Assembly (NCBI GenBank): GCA_964653435.1
Contig: CAZZFA010000003.1
Location: 9,521 to 73,520, forward strand
From: an uncultured Planctomycetales bacterium
Lineage (GTDB): Bacteria; Planctomycetota; Phycisphaerae; UBA1845; PWPN01
DNA: 64,000 nucleotides
Direction of reading: 5' to 3'
Shown: piece after piece, positions 5,433 through 23,141 of the stretch
Layout: each line of letters starts with the position of its first letter
How positions within the stretch are numbered: position 1 is the first letter of the stretch
Translations under genes and position numbers: made by a program
The notes under the pieces: model-generated
Told to the model about the DNA's origin: nothing
The model's input: the letters and a program-made list of their open reading frames with translations, nothing else
The model's database searches: none

Positions 5433-6743
5433 TCACCGTCGCCGGCGCCGGCGGGCCGGCTTGAACTTACTGCCCAGCGTCTTGGGGATGGTCGGCGCGG
5501 CGGCGGCCTCGCCGGACCCGCCGAATACGCTCTGCTCGAAGCGCGACCGCGGCGTCTCGGTCGGCGAGAGGCTCGACCAGGCCGCCTCCTCGGCAGGGGG
5601 CGGGCTGGGCTCGAAACCCTCGATCGTGTCCCGTTCCAGCATCTTGTTGATGAGCTTCTCGATCTCCGTGAGCTGCTTGCCCTGCTCCTTCGTGACGAAG
5701 GTGTACGCGCGGCCGAAGGCGCCCATGCGGGCGGTTCGCCCGATGCGGTGCACGTACACGTCCGGGTCGTCGGGGATGTCGTAGTTGATGATGTGGCTGA
5801 TCGCGTGCACGTCAATCCCGCGCGAGGCCAGGTCGGTCGCGATGAGGAGGCGAATCTGGTGTTTGCGGAACCGCGCCATCACGCGGTCGCGCTTCTGCTG
5901 CACCAGGTCGCCGTGTATCTCCTTCGCCTCGATGCCGGCCTGATGGAGCCGGTGGGCCAGCTTCCGGGCGCCGTGCTTGGTCCGGCAGAAGATGATGGCC
6001 AGCTTCGGCTGATCCCGCTTGAGCAGGGCCAGCAGGAGGCGGAACTTGTCCCACGGCTCGACGGAGAAATAGGCCTGCGACACCTCCTCCACGGTCAGCT
6101 CGTCCCGCGAGACGTTCAGCTCGAGCGGGTCGTTCGCATACTGGCTTACCAGTCGTTTGATCTCGTCCTCGATCGTCGCCGAGACGGAGATCGTCTGGTG
6201 CGGCGTGCGAATCTGCGAGAGGATGCGGCGGATGTCGTCGCGGAAGCCGATATCGAGCATCCGGTCCACCTCGTCGAGGACGGCGAAGCGGATCTCCTCG
6301 AACGAGAGCGCCCGCCGGTCGAGCAGGTCCATCAGCCGGCCGGGCGTGGCGACGACGATGTGCGGTTTGCGGCCGAGCTGGTGAAGCTGATGCCTGATCC
6401 GCTCGCCTCCGTAAACCGGTACGCAGCGCACGCGGGTAAACTCGTTGAGACGGATGATTTCGGCGGCGGCCTGCACGGCGAGTTCGCGCGTCGGCACCAG
6501 GACGATCGCCTGGAGCCGCCGATCCGGGTCGACGCGTTGCGAAACGGGCAGCCCGAAGGCGGCCGTCTTGCCGGTGCCCGTGCGGGCCTGTCCGATGACG
6601 TCCCGGCCGGCCAGAACGGGCGGAATCAACGCGCGTTGAATCTCCGTGGGCTCTCGAAAACCGATTTTCGACAGGGCCTTCAGCCAGGGCAACTCGACCC
6701 CAAGCTCAGCAAATGCGGATGGGGCCTGCGGCGGTGGGTGCAT
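5433..6743 (-). CDS. DEAD-box ATP-dependent RNA helicase
   Basis: Q motif FREPTEIQ, motif I AQARTGTGKT, Ia PTRELA, II VLDEVDRML (DEVD variant), III SAT, VI HRIGRTAR. Basic C-terminal tail KPARRRRRR. Confidence 0.9.
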   Translation of the reverse strand: MHPPPQAPSAFAELGVELPWLKALSKIGFREPTEIQRALIPPVLAGRDVIGQARTGTGKTAAFGLPVSQRVDPDRRLQAIVLVPTRELAVQAAAEIIRLNEFTRVRCVPVYGGERIRHQLHQLGRKPHIVVATPGRLMDLLDRRALSFEEIRFAVLDEVDRMLDIGFRDDIRRILSQIRTPHQTISVSATIEDEIKRLVSQYANDPLELNVSRDELTVEEVSQAYFSVEPWDKFRLLLALLKRDQPKLAIIFCRTKHGARKLAHRLHQAGIEAKEIHGDLVQQKRDRVMARFRKHQIRLLIATDLASRGIDVHAISHIINYDIPDDPDVYVHRIGRTARMGAFGRAYTFVTKEQGKQLTEIEKLINKMLERDTIEGFEPSPPPAEEAAWSSLSPTETPRSRFEQSVFGGSGEAAAAPTIPKTLGSKFKPARRRRRR

Positions 6744-18228: not shown

Positions 18229-19521
18229 ATGTACACGGGTCTGGGTTTTGCGACCGTTCGGCTTGGCATCAAGAACATCACGCTGCACAAGCTGCGCTCC
18301 TTCCTGACGACGCTGGGGATCATCTGCGGCGTGGCCGCGGTGATCTGCATGCTCTCGATCAGCGAGGGGGCGTCCGAGGCGGAGATGGCGCTGATCCGGC
18401 TGCTGGGCACGCAGAATGTGATCATCCAGTCGGCCCAGCCGGAGGCGGGCGGCGACGTCTCGCAGCAGGTTTCGCGGCTGCTCGAATACGGCCTGACGCG
18501 GGCGGACTACGACTTGATTGCCGGGACCATTCCGCACGTCAAGGGCATTGTTCCGCTGCGGGAGGTTGCGTTCGAGGCGTCGTACGGTCCCACGGTGTAC
18601 CCGGCTACGGTCGTCGGAACGCGGCCGGAGTTCTTCAGCACGATTCACGTGACCGTCGCCGAAGGCCGGCCGCTTCAGGTCGTCGATCAGGCCAACATGG
18701 CAAAGGTCTGCGTGATCGGGGACGAGGTTCGCAGGAAGCTTTTCGCCTACGAGGATCCGATCGGCAAGGTCCTTACGGTCAGCACCGCGGCCTCCGGCGT
18801 GATTCCGTTCGAGGTGGTCGGCGTTCTGAGCCGGGTCGAGACGGCCGGGCTTCCGGCCAAAGGAGTGGCGGAGCGGAACCTCAACGCGGACGTTTTCATT
18901 CCGCTTTCCACGGCGGACGCCCGCTACGGCGACCTTCGGATCAAGGTCGGCAGCGGCACGCGGGAGTACAGCCGGTGCGAATACAGCGACTTCTATGTGC
19001 AGGTGGATTCGCTCGCCTATGTCCTGCCGGTGTCGGAGATGCTCAAGCAGGCGCTGGCTCACAAGCACAAGCGGGTGGACTACGTGGTCAAGGTTCCGCT
19101 GGAACGTCTGCGGATCTTCGAAGCCGAAAAGCGGCGCCGCCAGGTGACGCTGGGCTCCATCGCGGGCATCTCGCTGCTCGTGGGCGGGATCGGCATCATG
19201 AACATCATGCTGGCGACGGTGACCGAACGGACGCGTGAGATCGGCATCCGCCGCGCCCTGGGAGCGAAGCGCCGCCACATTACGGCCCAGTTTCTCATCG
19301 AATCGCTGATGCTGAGCAGCGCCGGGGGCCTGATCGGCGTGGTCTGCGGCGCGAGCGGCGCATTTGCGATCACGCAATGGGTCGGCTGGCCGACGGTCAT
19401 CCACCAGTGGACGATCTTCGTCAGCCTGGCCCTGGCCCTGGCGGTGGGCGTCTTCTTCGGCATCTACCCCGCCGCCGCGGCGGCACGGCTCGATCCGATC
19501 GAGGCGCTGCGGCATTCCTGA
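18229..19521 (+). CDS. ABC transporter permease (MacB periplasmic domain + FtsX fold)
   Basis: N-terminal KNITLHKLRSFLTTLGIICGVAAVI, a large periplasmic domain, and a C-terminal FtsX-type 3-TM bundle with TERTREIGIRRALGAKRRHI. Start ATG 18229 within ORF 18130..19521. Confidence 0.9.
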   Translation: MYTGLGFATVRLGIKNITLHKLRSFLTTLGIICGVAAVICMLSISEGASEAEMALIRLLGTQNVIIQSAQPEAGGDVSQQVSRLLEYGLTRADYDLIAGTIPHVKGIVPLREVAFEASYGPTVYPATVVGTRPEFFSTIHVTVAEGRPLQVVDQANMAKVCVIGDEVRRKLFAYEDPIGKVLTVSTAASGVIPFEVVGVLSRVETAGLPAKGVAERNLNADVFIPLSTADARYGDLRIKVGSGTREYSRCEYSDFYVQVDSLAYVLPVSEMLKQALAHKHKRVDYVVKVPLERLRIFEAEKRRRQVTLGSIAGISLLVGGIGIMNIMLATVTERTREIGIRRALGAKRRHITAQFLIESLMLSSAGGLIGVVCGASGAFAITQWVGWPTVIHQWTIFVSLALALAVGVFFGIYPAAAAARLDPIEALRHS

Positions 19522-19685
19522 CCTTCGCAAGTCACGCGCGCAGCGGTTTTCGCTCGGCCGCGTGTCGCGTACAATGCCGTTGATGGTGAGCGGGGACGGA
19601 GGCAGGGCAAGAGTCACAGCTCATCGGGTGGATCAATATCCCCGGGAAGAGTTGTGGCAAAGGTTTCCAGCGGAGGACGCCACCC

Positions 19686-20759
19686 ATGTTCCAGGCGTTT
19701 CAGGTGAAGAATTTTCGATGCTTCCGGCATCTGAAGCTCGATTCGCTCGAGCGTGTTAACCTTGTTACCGGAAAGAACAACGCCGGCAAGACGGCCCTGT
19801 TGGAGGCGATTTTTCTTCATCTCGGCGCGATCAATCCGGAACTGTCCACCCTTCGTTTGAATGCTTTCCGAGGGTTCGAGGTGCCGCTTGCTGAAGCGTT
19901 GGAGACTTGGGGATGGCTGTTTCGCGATCGCGAAACCGGCGGTGAGATTGAGTCGACTTCGACTGATGAGCACGGTGTCAAGCGCAGGCTTGTGATCCGT
20001 CTTGGCGTAGCCGAAACGTCCGAGGTGCCTCTGGCAGAGAAGGGTCATCGGGGCGGCGGCGGGTCATCACACGCACTGGTGAGCCGACCGGTTCCGCAGG
20101 AGCTGCGCCTTGAATTCGACGATGGCAGCGGCCACGTCGTTCGGAGCAGCAGTGTAATTGCTGAAGATCACGTCGAGTTTCGGGCCCCTGCGTCAGCGGC
20201 TTTTCCGCTCAGCTGCTTCTTCAGTACCCGGCTTCGCAGCAAGGACGAGGACGTGGATCGATTCAGCAAGCTTGATGAGGTGGGACGGCAAGACGAGTTG
20301 CTGGCGATCCTCAAGCTTGTCGAGCCCAAGTTGCAGCGGCTTGCCGTGCACACCGTTCGCGGGGTGACTTCCATTCGCGGTGACGTTGGAATGGGAAGGA
20401 TGGTTCCGCTCGCGCTCATGGGCGAGGGACTCGTTCGTCTTCTGTCGATCAGTACAGCCATACTATCCTGTAAAGATGGTGCCGTCCTTGTGGATGAGAT
20501 CGAGAACGGTCTTCACCACGAGGTTCTCCCGTCCGTCTGGGCCGGGGTCGCCGAGGCGGCTCGCAAGTCAAATGTGCAGGTCTTTGCCACGACGCACAGC
20601 CGCGAGTGCGTTGAGGCGGCTCATCGTGCGTTCAGCGAAAGTCTGCACTACGATCTGCGTGTGATTCGCTTGGAGCGGGAGGAGAAGGAGATCTGCGCGA
20701 TCCCCTACACGAAGGATACGCTGGACACCTCGTTTGAGATGAGCCTGGAGGTTCGGTGA
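19686..20759 (+). CDS. SMC/RecF/OLD-style ABC ATPase (AAA_21/AAA_15-like), component A of a candidate two-gene system
   Basis: FQVKNFRCFRHLKL...LVTGKNNAGKT (Walker A), a ~200-aa insertion, signature-like LMGEGLVRLLSI, Walker B AVLVDEIE, H-loop ATTHS. GGAGGA lies 9 nt upstream of the ATG. G+C is visibly lower than in neighbouring genes. Confidence 0.85.
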   Translation: MFQAFQVKNFRCFRHLKLDSLERVNLVTGKNNAGKTALLEAIFLHLGAINPELSTLRLNAFRGFEVPLAEALETWGWLFRDRETGGEIESTSTDEHGVKRRLVIRLGVAETSEVPLAEKGHRGGGGSSHALVSRPVPQELRLEFDDGSGHVVRSSSVIAEDHVEFRAPASAAFPLSCFFSTRLRSKDEDVDRFSKLDEVGRQDELLAILKLVEPKLQRLAVHTVRGVTSIRGDVGMGRMVPLALMGEGLVRLLSISTAILSCKDGAVLVDEIENGLHHEVLPSVWAGVAEAARKSNVQVFATTHSRECVEAAHRAFSESLHYDLRVIRLEREEKEICAIPYTKDTLDTSFEMSLEVR

Positions 20760-21370
20760 TGACGTCTTCCTATCTGAGGATCGCCGGGCCGAAGTTGCTC
20801 ATCGGCGAAGGCGTGGAGGAGAAGAGGTTCTTCGCTGCGCTGCTTAGACATCTCGACAGAACGGATGTGCAGGTCGAGGAGTATGGCGGAAAGGACGGTC
20901 TTTCCCGTTTCCTGGAGGCGCTGCCAAAGATCCCGGGGTATTCCGGCCTGGCTGTGCTGGGCATCACTCGTGATGCGGATAAGTCGCGGAGGGATGCGAA
21001 CGAGAGCGTTCGCGAAGCAATACGAAGGGCAAAGCTTGAAGACCCGGACTTGCCGGAGGGCAGCAGGATCAAGCGTCTTCGGATCCACGTGTTCATTCTG
21101 CCGGATGACGCAACGGACGGGATGCTCGAAGATCTATGCCTCCAGTCAGTCGGAGACGACGCGGCGATGCCGTGTGTGGACGAGTTCCTGCATTGCGTCA
21201 GGCAACGGGCAAAGCGGTACCCATCCAATGAGGCCAAGGCTCGCGTTCACGCCTGGCTATCGTCGCAACGGGTTCCGGACAAGCGATTGGGCGAAGCGGC
21301 CGAGGCTGGCTACTGGCGCTTCGACCACCCGGCGTTCGATGCGTTGAAGAGCTTCATACGATCGCTTTAA
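20756..21370 (+). CDS. Small TOPRIM-like protein (DUF3226-like), component B of the candidate two-gene system
   Basis: The start overlaps the stop of gene A (GTG 20756 or ATG 20759 versus TGA 20757-20759). Motifs are KLLIGEGVEE, GITRDAD (DxD), ILPDDATDGMLEDL and ...KARVHAWLSSQ...LGEAAEAGYW. This matches my memory of DUF3226-type proteins that accompany AAA ATPases. Confidence 0.75.
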   Translation: MMTSSYLRIAGPKLLIGEGVEEKRFFAALLRHLDRTDVQVEEYGGKDGLSRFLEALPKIPGYSGLAVLGITRDADKSRRDANESVREAIRRAKLEDPDLPEGSRIKRLRIHVFILPDDATDGMLEDLCLQSVGDDAAMPCVDEFLHCVRQRAKRYPSNEAKARVHAWLSSQRVPDKRLGEAAEAGYWRFDHPAFDALKSFIRSL

Positions 21371-21485
21371 TCTACCGGTGTCTTGCTGTCCTATGCGGTA
21401 ACGCCGGCTGACGGGCGATCATTGGCGCGGTTTCGGGCGATGGGGATGAGTCCGCTCCTTGCTGCCCCGCCGGTGCGGATACAGC

Positions 21486-23141
21486 TCACTCGGTGCCGAG
21501 TGGTCGGTAGTTCACGTCCAGTGCGTCGAGCCGCTTGAGGTCCGCGCGCAGTCGATCGAGGAATCGCCCGTAGTCGCGCTGTTGTTTCGGCGACCAGACG
21601 ATCTCCGCCAGCGCTGCCGCCCGCGGGAACGCCATGTACTCGACGTGCCGCGTGTCCGGCATGTACTCCGCCCACAGTTGCCCCTGTGAGCCGAGGATGT
21701 GTCTGGCCTCCTCGTCGCTCAGGACGCTCGGGATCGGTTCGTACTGATAGACCTTTTCCAGCGGCAGGTCGCCGCCGATTGCCAAAGGCTCCTTTTCGCG
21801 CGGGCCCTGGCAGTAGTCGAAGTAGGTGTGCGTCGTCGGGGCCATGACGACGTCGTGGCCCGCACGGGCCGCCGTGATCCCGCCCTGCTCGCCCCGCCAG
21901 GACATCACCACCGCGCCGGGCGCCAGGCCGCCCTCGAGGATCTCGTCCCAGCCCACCAGCCGCCGTCCGTGCTTCGTCAGGAACGTATCCATCTGGCGGA
22001 TGAACCAGCTCTGCATCTCGGCCTCGTCTTTCAGGCCGAGTTCCCGGATACGCGCCTGCACGGCCGGGCTGGCCTTCCACTGGTCCTTGATCGCCTCGTC
22101 GCCCCCGACGTGGATGTACGGGCTCGGGAACAGCTCCAGCACCTCGGTGAGCACATCCTGCAGAAAGGCGATGGTCCTGTCCGTCGGGGCGAAGATGTCG
22201 GGGCAGACGCCCCACACGGTCCACGGCCGCAACGGTTTGTCGGGGTGGCATCCGAGCTCCGGGTACGCCGCGATGGCGGCGCGGGCGTGGCCGGGCATCT
22301 CGATCTCCGGGACCACGTTGATATGCCGGTCCGCCGCGTAGCGCACGATCTCGCGGATGTCGTCCTGCGTGTAGAAGCCGCCGTGCCGCCGGCCGTCGAA
22401 CTTCCACGGCTTCTCGCGAGGATGGCCGATCAGCGTTTCGTCGCGCCAGGCGCCGATCTCGGTGAGCTTCGGATACTTCCGGATCTCGATCCGCCATCCC
22501 TGGTCGTCGGTCAGGTGGAGTTGGAGGCTGTTGAGCTTGTGCAGCGCCATTACGTCGAGCAGCTTGAGCACGAACGATTTCGGCATGAAATGACGCGCCG
22601 TGTCGAGCAGCAGGCCGCGCCAGGCGAATCGCGGATAGTCCGTGATCGAGACACACGGCACGGTCCAGCGGACGCCGCCGACGGCCGCTTTGCGGAAGAT
22701 CGCCGCCGGCAGAAGCTGCCGGACCGACTGCGCGCCGTAAAACAACCCCGCCGGCGTCGCCGCACGGATGACGACCCGCTCGGGCGTCACATCGAGGCTG
22801 TATCCCTCGCTGCCGAGTTGGGCGTGAAGGTCGTCGATCTGCAGCGCGATGACATTGGCGTGCGGCGCGTTGCCTTGGGCGAGGGGCAATCGGAATCCCA
22901 TTGCAGGCGCGAGGCAGTCGATCAGCTTCTGCGCCTCAATCGCCGCGGCACCGCTCGCCGCCACCGTCGTCTCCGGCGAGATGACAAACACGCCCGGCAG
23001 CGTCCTCATCCGCACCGGCTCCGGGATGACCGACGTTCTGCCGGCAGCCGCCGTGGCCGGAGGTCCGCCGTCGGAAGCCGCGGCCACACCCAGACACATG
23101 AGAAACGACGGAAACGACGCGTGGAACATGTCGGACTCCAT
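21486..23141 (-). CDS. Beta-N-acetylhexosaminidase (GH20), secreted
   Basis: Signal peptide, then HLHLTDDQGWRIEI, the catalytic region HVGGDE, and a typical GH20 TIM-barrel layout. Confidence 0.9.
   Translation of the reverse strand: MESDMFHASFPSFLMCLGVAAASDGGPPATAAAGRTSVIPEPVRMRTLPGVFVISPETTVAASGAAAIEAQKLIDCLAPAMGFRLPLAQGNAPHANVIALQIDDLHAQLGSEGYSLDVTPERVVIRAATPAGLFYGAQSVRQLLPAAIFRKAAVGGVRWTVPCVSITDYPRFAWRGLLLDTARHFMPKSFVLKLLDVMALHKLNSLQLHLTDDQGWRIEIRKYPKLTEIGAWRDETLIGHPREKPWKFDGRRHGGFYTQDDIREIVRYAADRHINVVPEIEMPGHARAAIAAYPELGCHPDKPLRPWTVWGVCPDIFAPTDRTIAFLQDVLTEVLELFPSPYIHVGGDEAIKDQWKASPAVQARIRELGLKDEAEMQSWFIRQMDTFLTKHGRRLVGWDEILEGGLAPGAVVMSWRGEQGGITAARAGHDVVMAPTTHTYFDYCQGPREKEPLAIGGDLPLEKVYQYEPIPSVLSDEEARHILGSQGQLWAEYMPDTRHVEYMAFPRAAALAEIVWSPKQQRDYGRFLDRLRADLKRLDALDVNYRPLGTE

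Follow-up and report, generated by a model that had tools for sequence, protein, structure and literature searches.

What is the function of a small TOPRIM protein whose gene lies, together with that of an ABC-type ATPase, as a two-gene cassette among the housekeeping genes of a planctomycete? The question is raised by a 64,000-nucleotide stretch of DNA from an uncultured Planctomycetales bacterium (GenBank assembly GCA_964653435.1, contig CAZZFA010000003.1, positions 9,521 to 73,520 of the forward strand; hereafter the window), in which gene A encodes the ATPase and gene B, directly downstream, the small protein. A preliminary description made from the sequence had read B as a TOPRIM protein with a Glu/DxD set of metal-binding residues. 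The conservation of E17, D72 and D74, the Pfam assignment, an AlphaFold2 (AF2) model and Foldseek matches all support this reading. By analogy with characterised systems, we consider it reasonably probable that A and B form an autonomous, mobile conflict module of ATPase and nuclease, in which B would be the Mg2+-dependent effector, a two-metal nuclease, and A an ATP-driven sensor or gatekeeper. The coordinates of all features are collected in Table 1.

In sequence, B is an ordinary member of DUF3226, an already catalogued family with no assigned function. The Pfam model of the family (PF11536) matched B with an E value of 3.2e-34 and a score of 119 bits (cutoff 27), residues 13-204 aligning to positions 2-206 of the 208 in the model, and all 95 aligned relatives matched it as well. 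An exhaustive HMMER scan against representative clusters (50% identity) gave 2,724 clusters of B relatives at E<=1e-3 and 242 at E<=1e-30; the nearest relatives were found in metagenome-assembled genomes (MAGs) of Phycisphaerae. Because of the full-length Pfam match and the 2,724 clusters, the open reading frame (ORF) of B is taken to be real and far from a chance pattern. PADLOC models for both genes were matched, PDC-M38B by B (E=3.9e-13) and PDC-M38A by A (E=9.6e-53), the two genes being adjacent, co-oriented and overlapping by one base. By these matches the pair is a member of the PADLOC candidate system PDC-M38, an ABC ATPase plus a DUF3226 protein, and shows no structural difference from that family. 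The preliminary description had overlooked the catalogued family. In this respect the locus adds nothing beyond the databases, being a DUF3226 protein beside its usual ATPase.

The ORF had been described as running from a GTG at 20756 to 21370 on the plus strand; this frame, the peptides quoted from it and the residues listed (E18, E21, E22, D73, D75, D117, D118, D121 and E125) are all correct in the numbering of the resulting 204-residue protein. The true start is most likely the ATG at 20759, because it forms a TGATG overlap with the stop codon of A, is preceded by a GGAGG sequence and coincides with the first codon of a database protein of 203 residues that is 100% identical to B. Residues are numbered here by this 203-residue form, that is, by the earlier number minus 1. 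The overlap of the two genes is a layout typical of translational coupling.

AF2 modelling of B with an alignment of 95 diverse relatives gave a pLDDT (predicted local distance difference test) score of 95 and a predicted template modelling (pTM) score of 0.90. Secondary structures were assigned by DSSP, and the model was compared with the PDB by Foldseek. The core elements (β1 12-16, α 19-31, β2 37-41, α 47-57, β3 66-71, α 77-90 and β4 108-113) follow one another along the modelled chain in the β-α-β-α-β-α-β order of a TOPRIM domain, a fold in which helices flank a sheet of four parallel strands. The remainder, which had been described as a helical-looking C-terminal third, is modelled as five helices (123-130, 137-151, 158-168, 177-182 and 191-202). 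The five best PDB matches were C-terminal catalytic regions of class 2 OLD proteins from Xanthomonas and Burkholderia (6NJX, 6NK8, 6NJV and 6NJW), with probabilities of 0.85-1.0 (at least 0.99 for four of them), template modelling (TM) scores of 0.33-0.50 and identities of 10-15% over 218-234 alignment columns, covering all of B. The structure prediction proposed earlier as a check thus gave both a TOPRIM order of strands and helices and OLD catalytic regions as best matches. According to the model, B is a TOPRIM core joined to an OLD-type helical domain of about 80 residues. This domain had gone unrecognised in the preliminary description, and the label of a minimal TOPRIM protein does not hold for a protein that carries it and whose best full-length match is the class 2 OLD catalytic region. 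Ranked next was the TOPRIM-containing effector of retron Eco2, and below it came generic Rossmann-like folds. Foldseek against viral predicted structures returned nothing significant, an RloB-like protein standing at rank 37 with a TM score of 0.41. When the B family was aligned by hhalign to the single sequence of phage P2 Old, motifs I and II alone were aligned (Old residues 391-436, E=0.0018, probability 15%). The family profile also reached the structural-genomics protein PH0156 (PDB 2P62, E=1.8e-4); B as a single sequence had no match among the PDB sequences.

A TOPRIM domain is defined by a Glu after β1, a Gly after β2 and a DxD after β3 (PMC6755086), and all three motifs are present in B, as E17, G44 and D72/D74. 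In the OLD protein of Burkholderia pseudomallei (Bp OLD), metal A is ligated by E400 and D455 and, via water, by D457; metal B is ligated by E508, located where the helical domain begins, and, via water, by E404 and T506, and K562 completes the site (Schiltz et al., PMC6755086). The offsets of E17, E21, D72, D74 and E124 of B to E400, E404, D455, D457 and E508 of Bp OLD are 383, 383, 383, 383 and 384, E124 lying 50 residues past D74 and E508 51 residues past D457. Five of the six positions of the Bp OLD ligand set therefore have conserved counterparts in B at matching sequence spacing. Conservation was counted in 95 representatives of DUF3226 relatives with 35-53% identity to B. E17 and E124 are present in all 95, G18, D72 and G121 in 94 and A73 in 93; position 21 is Glu or Asp in 84, and position 74 is Asp in 80 and Glu in 11. 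K160 is the sole near-invariant basic residue in the helical domain and a candidate counterpart of K562. A Klebsiella plasmid homologue with 28% identity to B keeps the Glu, the Asp/Glu at +4, the DAD, the glutamate of GxxE and the lysine (in NEKKAK). We read the near-invariance of the metal-ligand positions, in the 95 representatives and in this distant homologue, as a signature of selection on catalysis.

These counts also revise the residue assignments made before. The spacing of about 55 residues between the first Glu and the DxD is exactly 55. The first motif had been called an atypical GEG, yet its E-G is canonical; the residue before the Glu is Val in 56/95 and Gly in 35/95, a polymorphism within the family that makes GEG a common variant of hhhVEG. 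The third acidic cluster survives in its last residue, the invariant E124 (formerly E125), and not in the three aspartates, formerly D117, D118 and D121: D116 is Asp in 45/95, D117 in 14/95, and D120 is not conserved. The conserved residues beyond the Glu/DxD set are E21, E124 and K160 in place of these aspartates, and the near-invariant lysine had not been noticed at all. A useful output of the analysis is the corrected residue list E17, E21, D72, D74, E124 and K160.

Three cysteines stand out beside these residues on helices 123-130 and 137-151: C127 (83/95), C139 and C146 (both 95/95), all replaced in the 28%-identical Klebsiella homologue. They are a clade-specific feature that may mark a site for metal binding or redox chemistry, or may serve the packing of the core. 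We rejected them as catalytic or metal B ligands because the Klebsiella homologue keeps all the acidic residues and has none of the cysteines.

B itself lacks an ATPase domain and is obligately partnered with A, as the preliminary description had proposed. In 80/80 genome loci, sampled from Cyanobacteriota, Chloroflexota, Planctomycetota, Acidobacteriota and others, the gene immediately upstream of B, in the same orientation, was a homologue of A. The two are separate genes throughout, and no ATPase-DUF3226 fusion occurred among the 150 best representatives. Pairwise identities among the A proteins are correlated with those among the B proteins (r=0.74; Mantel 0/999), and B appears to be translationally linked to and co-inherited with A. 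A matched AAA_15 (E=1e-20) and AAA_21 (E=1e-19) in Pfam and carries no nuclease domain; its sequence contains putative Walker A (K35) and Walker B (D270/E271) residues. In PADLOC it matched AbiLi over its full length (2.4e-57) and the AriA models at 1e-24. Its closest solved relatives by sequence were PtuA (8EE4; 1.8e-11, residues 3-309), Ts OLD (6P74), Rad50, RecF and GajA; AriA was not among the solved relatives at E<=1e-3.

Known combinations of an ABC ATPase with a TOPRIM protein include OLD, Gabija, PARIS, AbiL and MADS3-4 (PMC11464382, PMC10568477, PMC13064643), and A and B resemble each in part. The class 2 OLD proteins of B. pseudomallei and Xanthomonas campestris (6NK8, 6NJV, 6NJX) share with B the TOPRIM-plus-helical-domain architecture, the Glu, Glu+4, DxD and helical-domain Glu at B's spacing and a conserved lysine in the helical domain. 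In OLD classes 1-3 the ATPase is fused N-terminal to the TOPRIM domain, whereas here it is encoded separately; and class 2 OLD and Gabija have a UvrD/GajB-like helicase partner, whereas no such gene follows B in the window. PARIS, also called class 4 OLD, has the split design of A and B, an ATPase gene followed by that of a small TOPRIM effector, and the PH0156 structure reached by the B family is the top HHpred match reported for the AriB of lactococcal PARIS-ii (PMC11381338). AriB is, however, a 35-kDa DUF4435 protein, whereas B is about 100 residues shorter and gave no Pfam match to DUF4435 (PF14491) at E<=1 and no AriB match in PADLOC; AriA is a protein of 55 kDa, A one of 357 residues. 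AbiL, classed as an ABC ATPase plus TOPRIM/OLD system (PMC13064643, PMC11464382), is a bicistronic operon whose AbiLi is matched by A over the full length and whose AbiLii is matched by B weakly and in the C-terminal part only (PADLOC, E=0.0096, residues 97-201). Septu PtuA/PtuB, Gabija GajA, HEC-01 and MADS mad3/mad4 likewise place an AAA_15/21 ABC ATPase like A, as presumed sensor, beside a nuclease. The Septu effector is an HNH nuclease, unlike B, and GajA is a fused ATPase-TOPRIM protein with a helicase partner, unlike the A-B pair. The HEC-01 and mad4 models did not match B; the Klebsiella homologue alone matched mad4, weakly (7e-4).

PARIS probably offers the best model of the pair's mode of action. 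There, AriA holds AriB until a phage trigger frees it, upon which AriB dimerises and cuts tRNA-Lys by two-metal catalysis (PMC11464382, PMC12409363). A further precedent is the AbiLii of Fusobacterium nucleatum, which is toxic in E. coli (PMC3985639). By analogy with class 2 OLD and AriB, B would cut a phosphodiester bond by two-metal catalysis. E17 and D72 would hold metal A, with D74 acting via water, E124 would hold metal B, with E21 acting via water, and K160 would stabilise the transition state or the leaving group. Regulation of B by A is likely, as judged from PARIS, Septu, Gabija and OLD: A would bind B and keep it inactive or untargeted, sense a cue derived from an invader through ATP binding or hydrolysis, and then free or activate B. 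Cleavage of DNA or of tRNA/RNA by B could lead to arrest of the infected cell (abortive infection) or to destruction of the invader. Which of these substrates B would cut is not inferable from sequence, as the preliminary description had rightly held. It had also argued that B has no DNA-binding domain, so that specificity must come from A. This argument fails because the matching C-terminal catalytic region of OLD cuts DNA in vitro without its ATPase (PMC6755086).

The cassette looks horizontally acquired. Its GC content is 0.58-0.61 against 0.64-0.69 in the flanks, and the GC content at third codon positions (GC3), 0.67 for A and 0.71 for B, lies below that of all neighbouring genes (0.85-0.91). 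No integrase, transposase or tRNA gene adjoins it in the window. As to flanking repeats or att sites, just short imperfect pairs were found, such as a 15-nt direct repeat (19616-19630 and 21481-21495) that is 80% identical and probably due to chance. In the plasmid collection, 138 Klebsiella records are 4.2-kb ColE1-type non-mobilizable plasmids on which A and B are the only cargo besides rop and a helix-turn-helix gene. K. pneumoniae plasmid L081 (NZ_CP024435.1, 4167 bp), for example, carries at 437-2184 overlapping genes for an ATPase of 371 residues and a DUF3226 protein of 210 residues, and both proteins of plasmids of this type score as AbiLi/PDC-M38. With A or B as query, tblastn found no lactococcal plasmid in the plasmid collection. 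Around the cassette in the window lie an HlyD-MacB efflux operon, genes for a GH20 hexosaminidase (the gene downstream of B, on the opposite strand) and an M16 peptidase, and UvrA. The neighbours differ in almost every genome, which suggests that the cassette has entered housekeeping regions, and not defence islands, repeatedly and independently.

Several observations weigh against reading B as the nuclease of a conflict module. The OLD structural match is the best available and not overwhelming, since no PDB match to B reached a Foldseek E<=1e-3 and the TM scores are just 0.33-0.50. The Pfam OLD-like_TOPRIM model (PF20469) matched B at residues 13-56 with 13.3 bits (E=0.12), below its gathering score of 23.2; in favour of the link to OLD, 28/95 family members matched it at E<=0.01 (best 5.6e-6), one of them (P0214) above the gathering score. 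These matches show remote homology and not membership of the OLD family. At the active site, the equivalent of T506 is M122, which is not conserved, and K160 does not lie at the OLD spacing of K562, so that we can only infer their equivalence. We found no paper mentioning "DUF3226" or "PDC-M38". The PDC systems are 145 candidates whose prediction rests on "guilt by embedding" in loci of BREX, DISARM or type I restriction-modification, yet the window copy and its close relatives are not so embedded; in the assay of the same paper HEC-01, a comparable ATPase plus TOPRIM candidate, did not protect (10.1101/2024.01.29.577857). No match was obtained by tblastn against 50,697 phage records. Finally, no defence-island signal was seen in the window or among the 275 ORFs that flank the cassette as first to third neighbours in 69 of the 80 loci (called by a crude ORF procedure and surveyed without a background control). 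These ORFs belong mostly to non-recurrent housekeeping families (among them HisB, ClpB, ROK and glycosyltransferases), with a few DNA methyltransferases and DUF559 proteins; four apparent AAA_15 neighbours in related loci are probably split A genes. The missing association with defence islands in this clade weakens the inference of a role in defence and is a caveat to be kept with the residue list.

The strongest alternative, which we nevertheless regard as unlikely, is that A and B form mainly a selfish addiction or plasmid-maintenance module of the toxin-antitoxin (TA) kind, in which B would be a toxic nuclease, A its neutraliser and loss of the pair lethal to the cell, with no dedicated anti-phage role. 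Such a module would fit the small Klebsiella plasmids, where the pair is essentially the sole cargo, the solitary insertion of the cassette among housekeeping genes outside any defence-island context and the existence of decayed copies; PARIS has been described in a review as resembling a type II TA pair in its behaviour (PMC13064643). Yet in the sole AbiL test on record, that of F. nucleatum, AbiLi supplied in trans did not neutralise the toxic AbiLii (PMC3985639), and all ABC ATPase plus TOPRIM pairs characterised so far are anti-phage. TA-like behaviour and abortive infection are, moreover, not mutually exclusive.

A housekeeping role in nucleic-acid metabolism, either as a RecF/RecR-like repair pair or in RNase M5-like RNA maturation with an ATPase cofactor, is very unlikely. 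It is suggested by the N-terminus of A, which matches the heads of RecF, Rad50 and SMC, by the small size of the TOPRIM proteins RecR and RNase M5, the latter having an active site in common with OLD (PMC6755086), and by the presence of UvrA among the window neighbours. The cassette is nevertheless foreign by its GC3, its neighbourhood differs in nearly every genome and it is carried on small plasmids; A fits AbiLi far better than RecF (39 bits against a cutoff of 172), and neither RNase M5 nor RecR structures are among the top 50 Foldseek matches of B. Least probable of all is that B has a TOPRIM-like fold without catalytic activity and serves as an adaptor that scaffolds or binds nucleic acids, with the effector activity residing in A or in a further host factor. 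Not all TOPRIM proteins are nucleases (RecR is not), and the structural likeness of B to OLD is moderate; against this, the full metal-ligand set is invariant or nearly so down to 35% identity among the representatives and is kept in the 28%-identical homologue, and A has no nuclease domain.

If the pair is active, no smaller OLD-type nuclease module would be known, and B would offer a tractable 23-kDa model for the gating of TOPRIM effectors by ABC ATPases. The pair is abundant in cyanobacteria, Chloroflexota and Planctomycetota, and the small Klebsiella plasmids that carry it are very common; its activity could therefore influence both the sensitivity of cells to phages and the biology of plasmids. 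A bolder proposal, speculative and doubtful as a whole, is that ATPase plus DUF3226 pairs are a distinct branch, the fifth, of the split OLD-like systems, and a very widespread one (2,724 clusters), whose 200-residue nuclease would hold the complete OLD two-metal site in the most compact form known. Such pairs would be conflict modules that act autonomously and lie outside defence islands; their trigger or substrate would differ from those of PARIS (tRNA-Lys) and of OLD and Gabija (DNA), and in the window clade the cysteines C127, C139 and C146 would provide an additional switch dependent on a metal or on redox state.

Table 1. Features of the A-B cassette, in window coordinates; residues refer to the 203-residue form of B.
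Feature	Position	Strand	Basis
Compositionally foreign two-gene cassette	19500..21450		GC, GC3
Gene A, 357-residue ABC-type ATPase (AAA_15/AAA_21), obligate partner of B	19686..20759	+	Pfam, PADLOC, synteny
Shine-Dalgarno-like GGAGG, 7 nt 5' of the ATG of B, within the 3' end of A	20747..20751	+	sequence
Alternative GTG start of B (204 residues)	20756	+	sequence
TGATG stop/start overlap of A and B	20757..20761	+	A stop TGA 20757-59, B ATG 20759-61
Gene B, DUF3226 protein, 203 residues	20759..21370	+	Pfam PF11536, PADLOC PDC-M38B, AF2 model
Predicted TOPRIM core, residues 12-116	20792..21106	+	DSSP on AF2 model; Foldseek; Pfam OLD-like_TOPRIM (weak); hhalign
Motif I, E17-G18-V19-E20-E21, with the TOPRIM Glu as proposed ligand of metal A and Glu+4 in the proposed water shell of metal B	20807..20821	+	conservation, Bp OLD spacing
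G44, TOPRIM glycine after β2	20888..20890	+	91/95
DxD motif D72-A73-D74, directly after β3	20972..20980	+	conservation, Bp OLD spacing
Predicted C-terminal helical domain, residues 121-203, five helices	21119..21367	+	AF2/DSSP; Foldseek
E124 in G121-M-L-E124, at the N-terminal end of the helical domain's first helix, proposed ligand of metal B	21128..21130	+	conservation, Bp OLD spacing
Clade-specific cysteines C127 (21137-21139), C139 (21173-21175) and C146 (21194-21196)	21137..21196	+	conservation
K160, near-invariant lysine, candidate K562 equivalent	21236..21238	+	K 93/95, R 2/95

A scan of 19400-21700 returned no sigma-70 promoter or intrinsic terminator, which is uninformative for a planctomycete-like genome. 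Two antisense ORFs over B on the minus strand (20705-21088, 127 residues; 20770-21237, 155 residues) were dismissed as high-GC artefacts, homologues having been found for the plus frame alone. One family member, P0154 (443 residues), contains two DUF3226 stretches, a tandem duplication within one polypeptide. Several Chloroflexota MAGs have the cassette beside hisB/hisD-type genes, and several cyanobacteria have it beside clpB; in the other genomes its neighbours differ nearly genome by genome. Decayed cassettes were also encountered. In locus L039 (802-1869) the A homologue has two in-frame stops, and in L015, L031, L041 and L053 (upstream of position 6001) A aligns in one frame just from about residue 158-226 onward. 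The AAA_15 matches among the ORFs just upstream in these four loci suggest separate N-terminal fragments of A.

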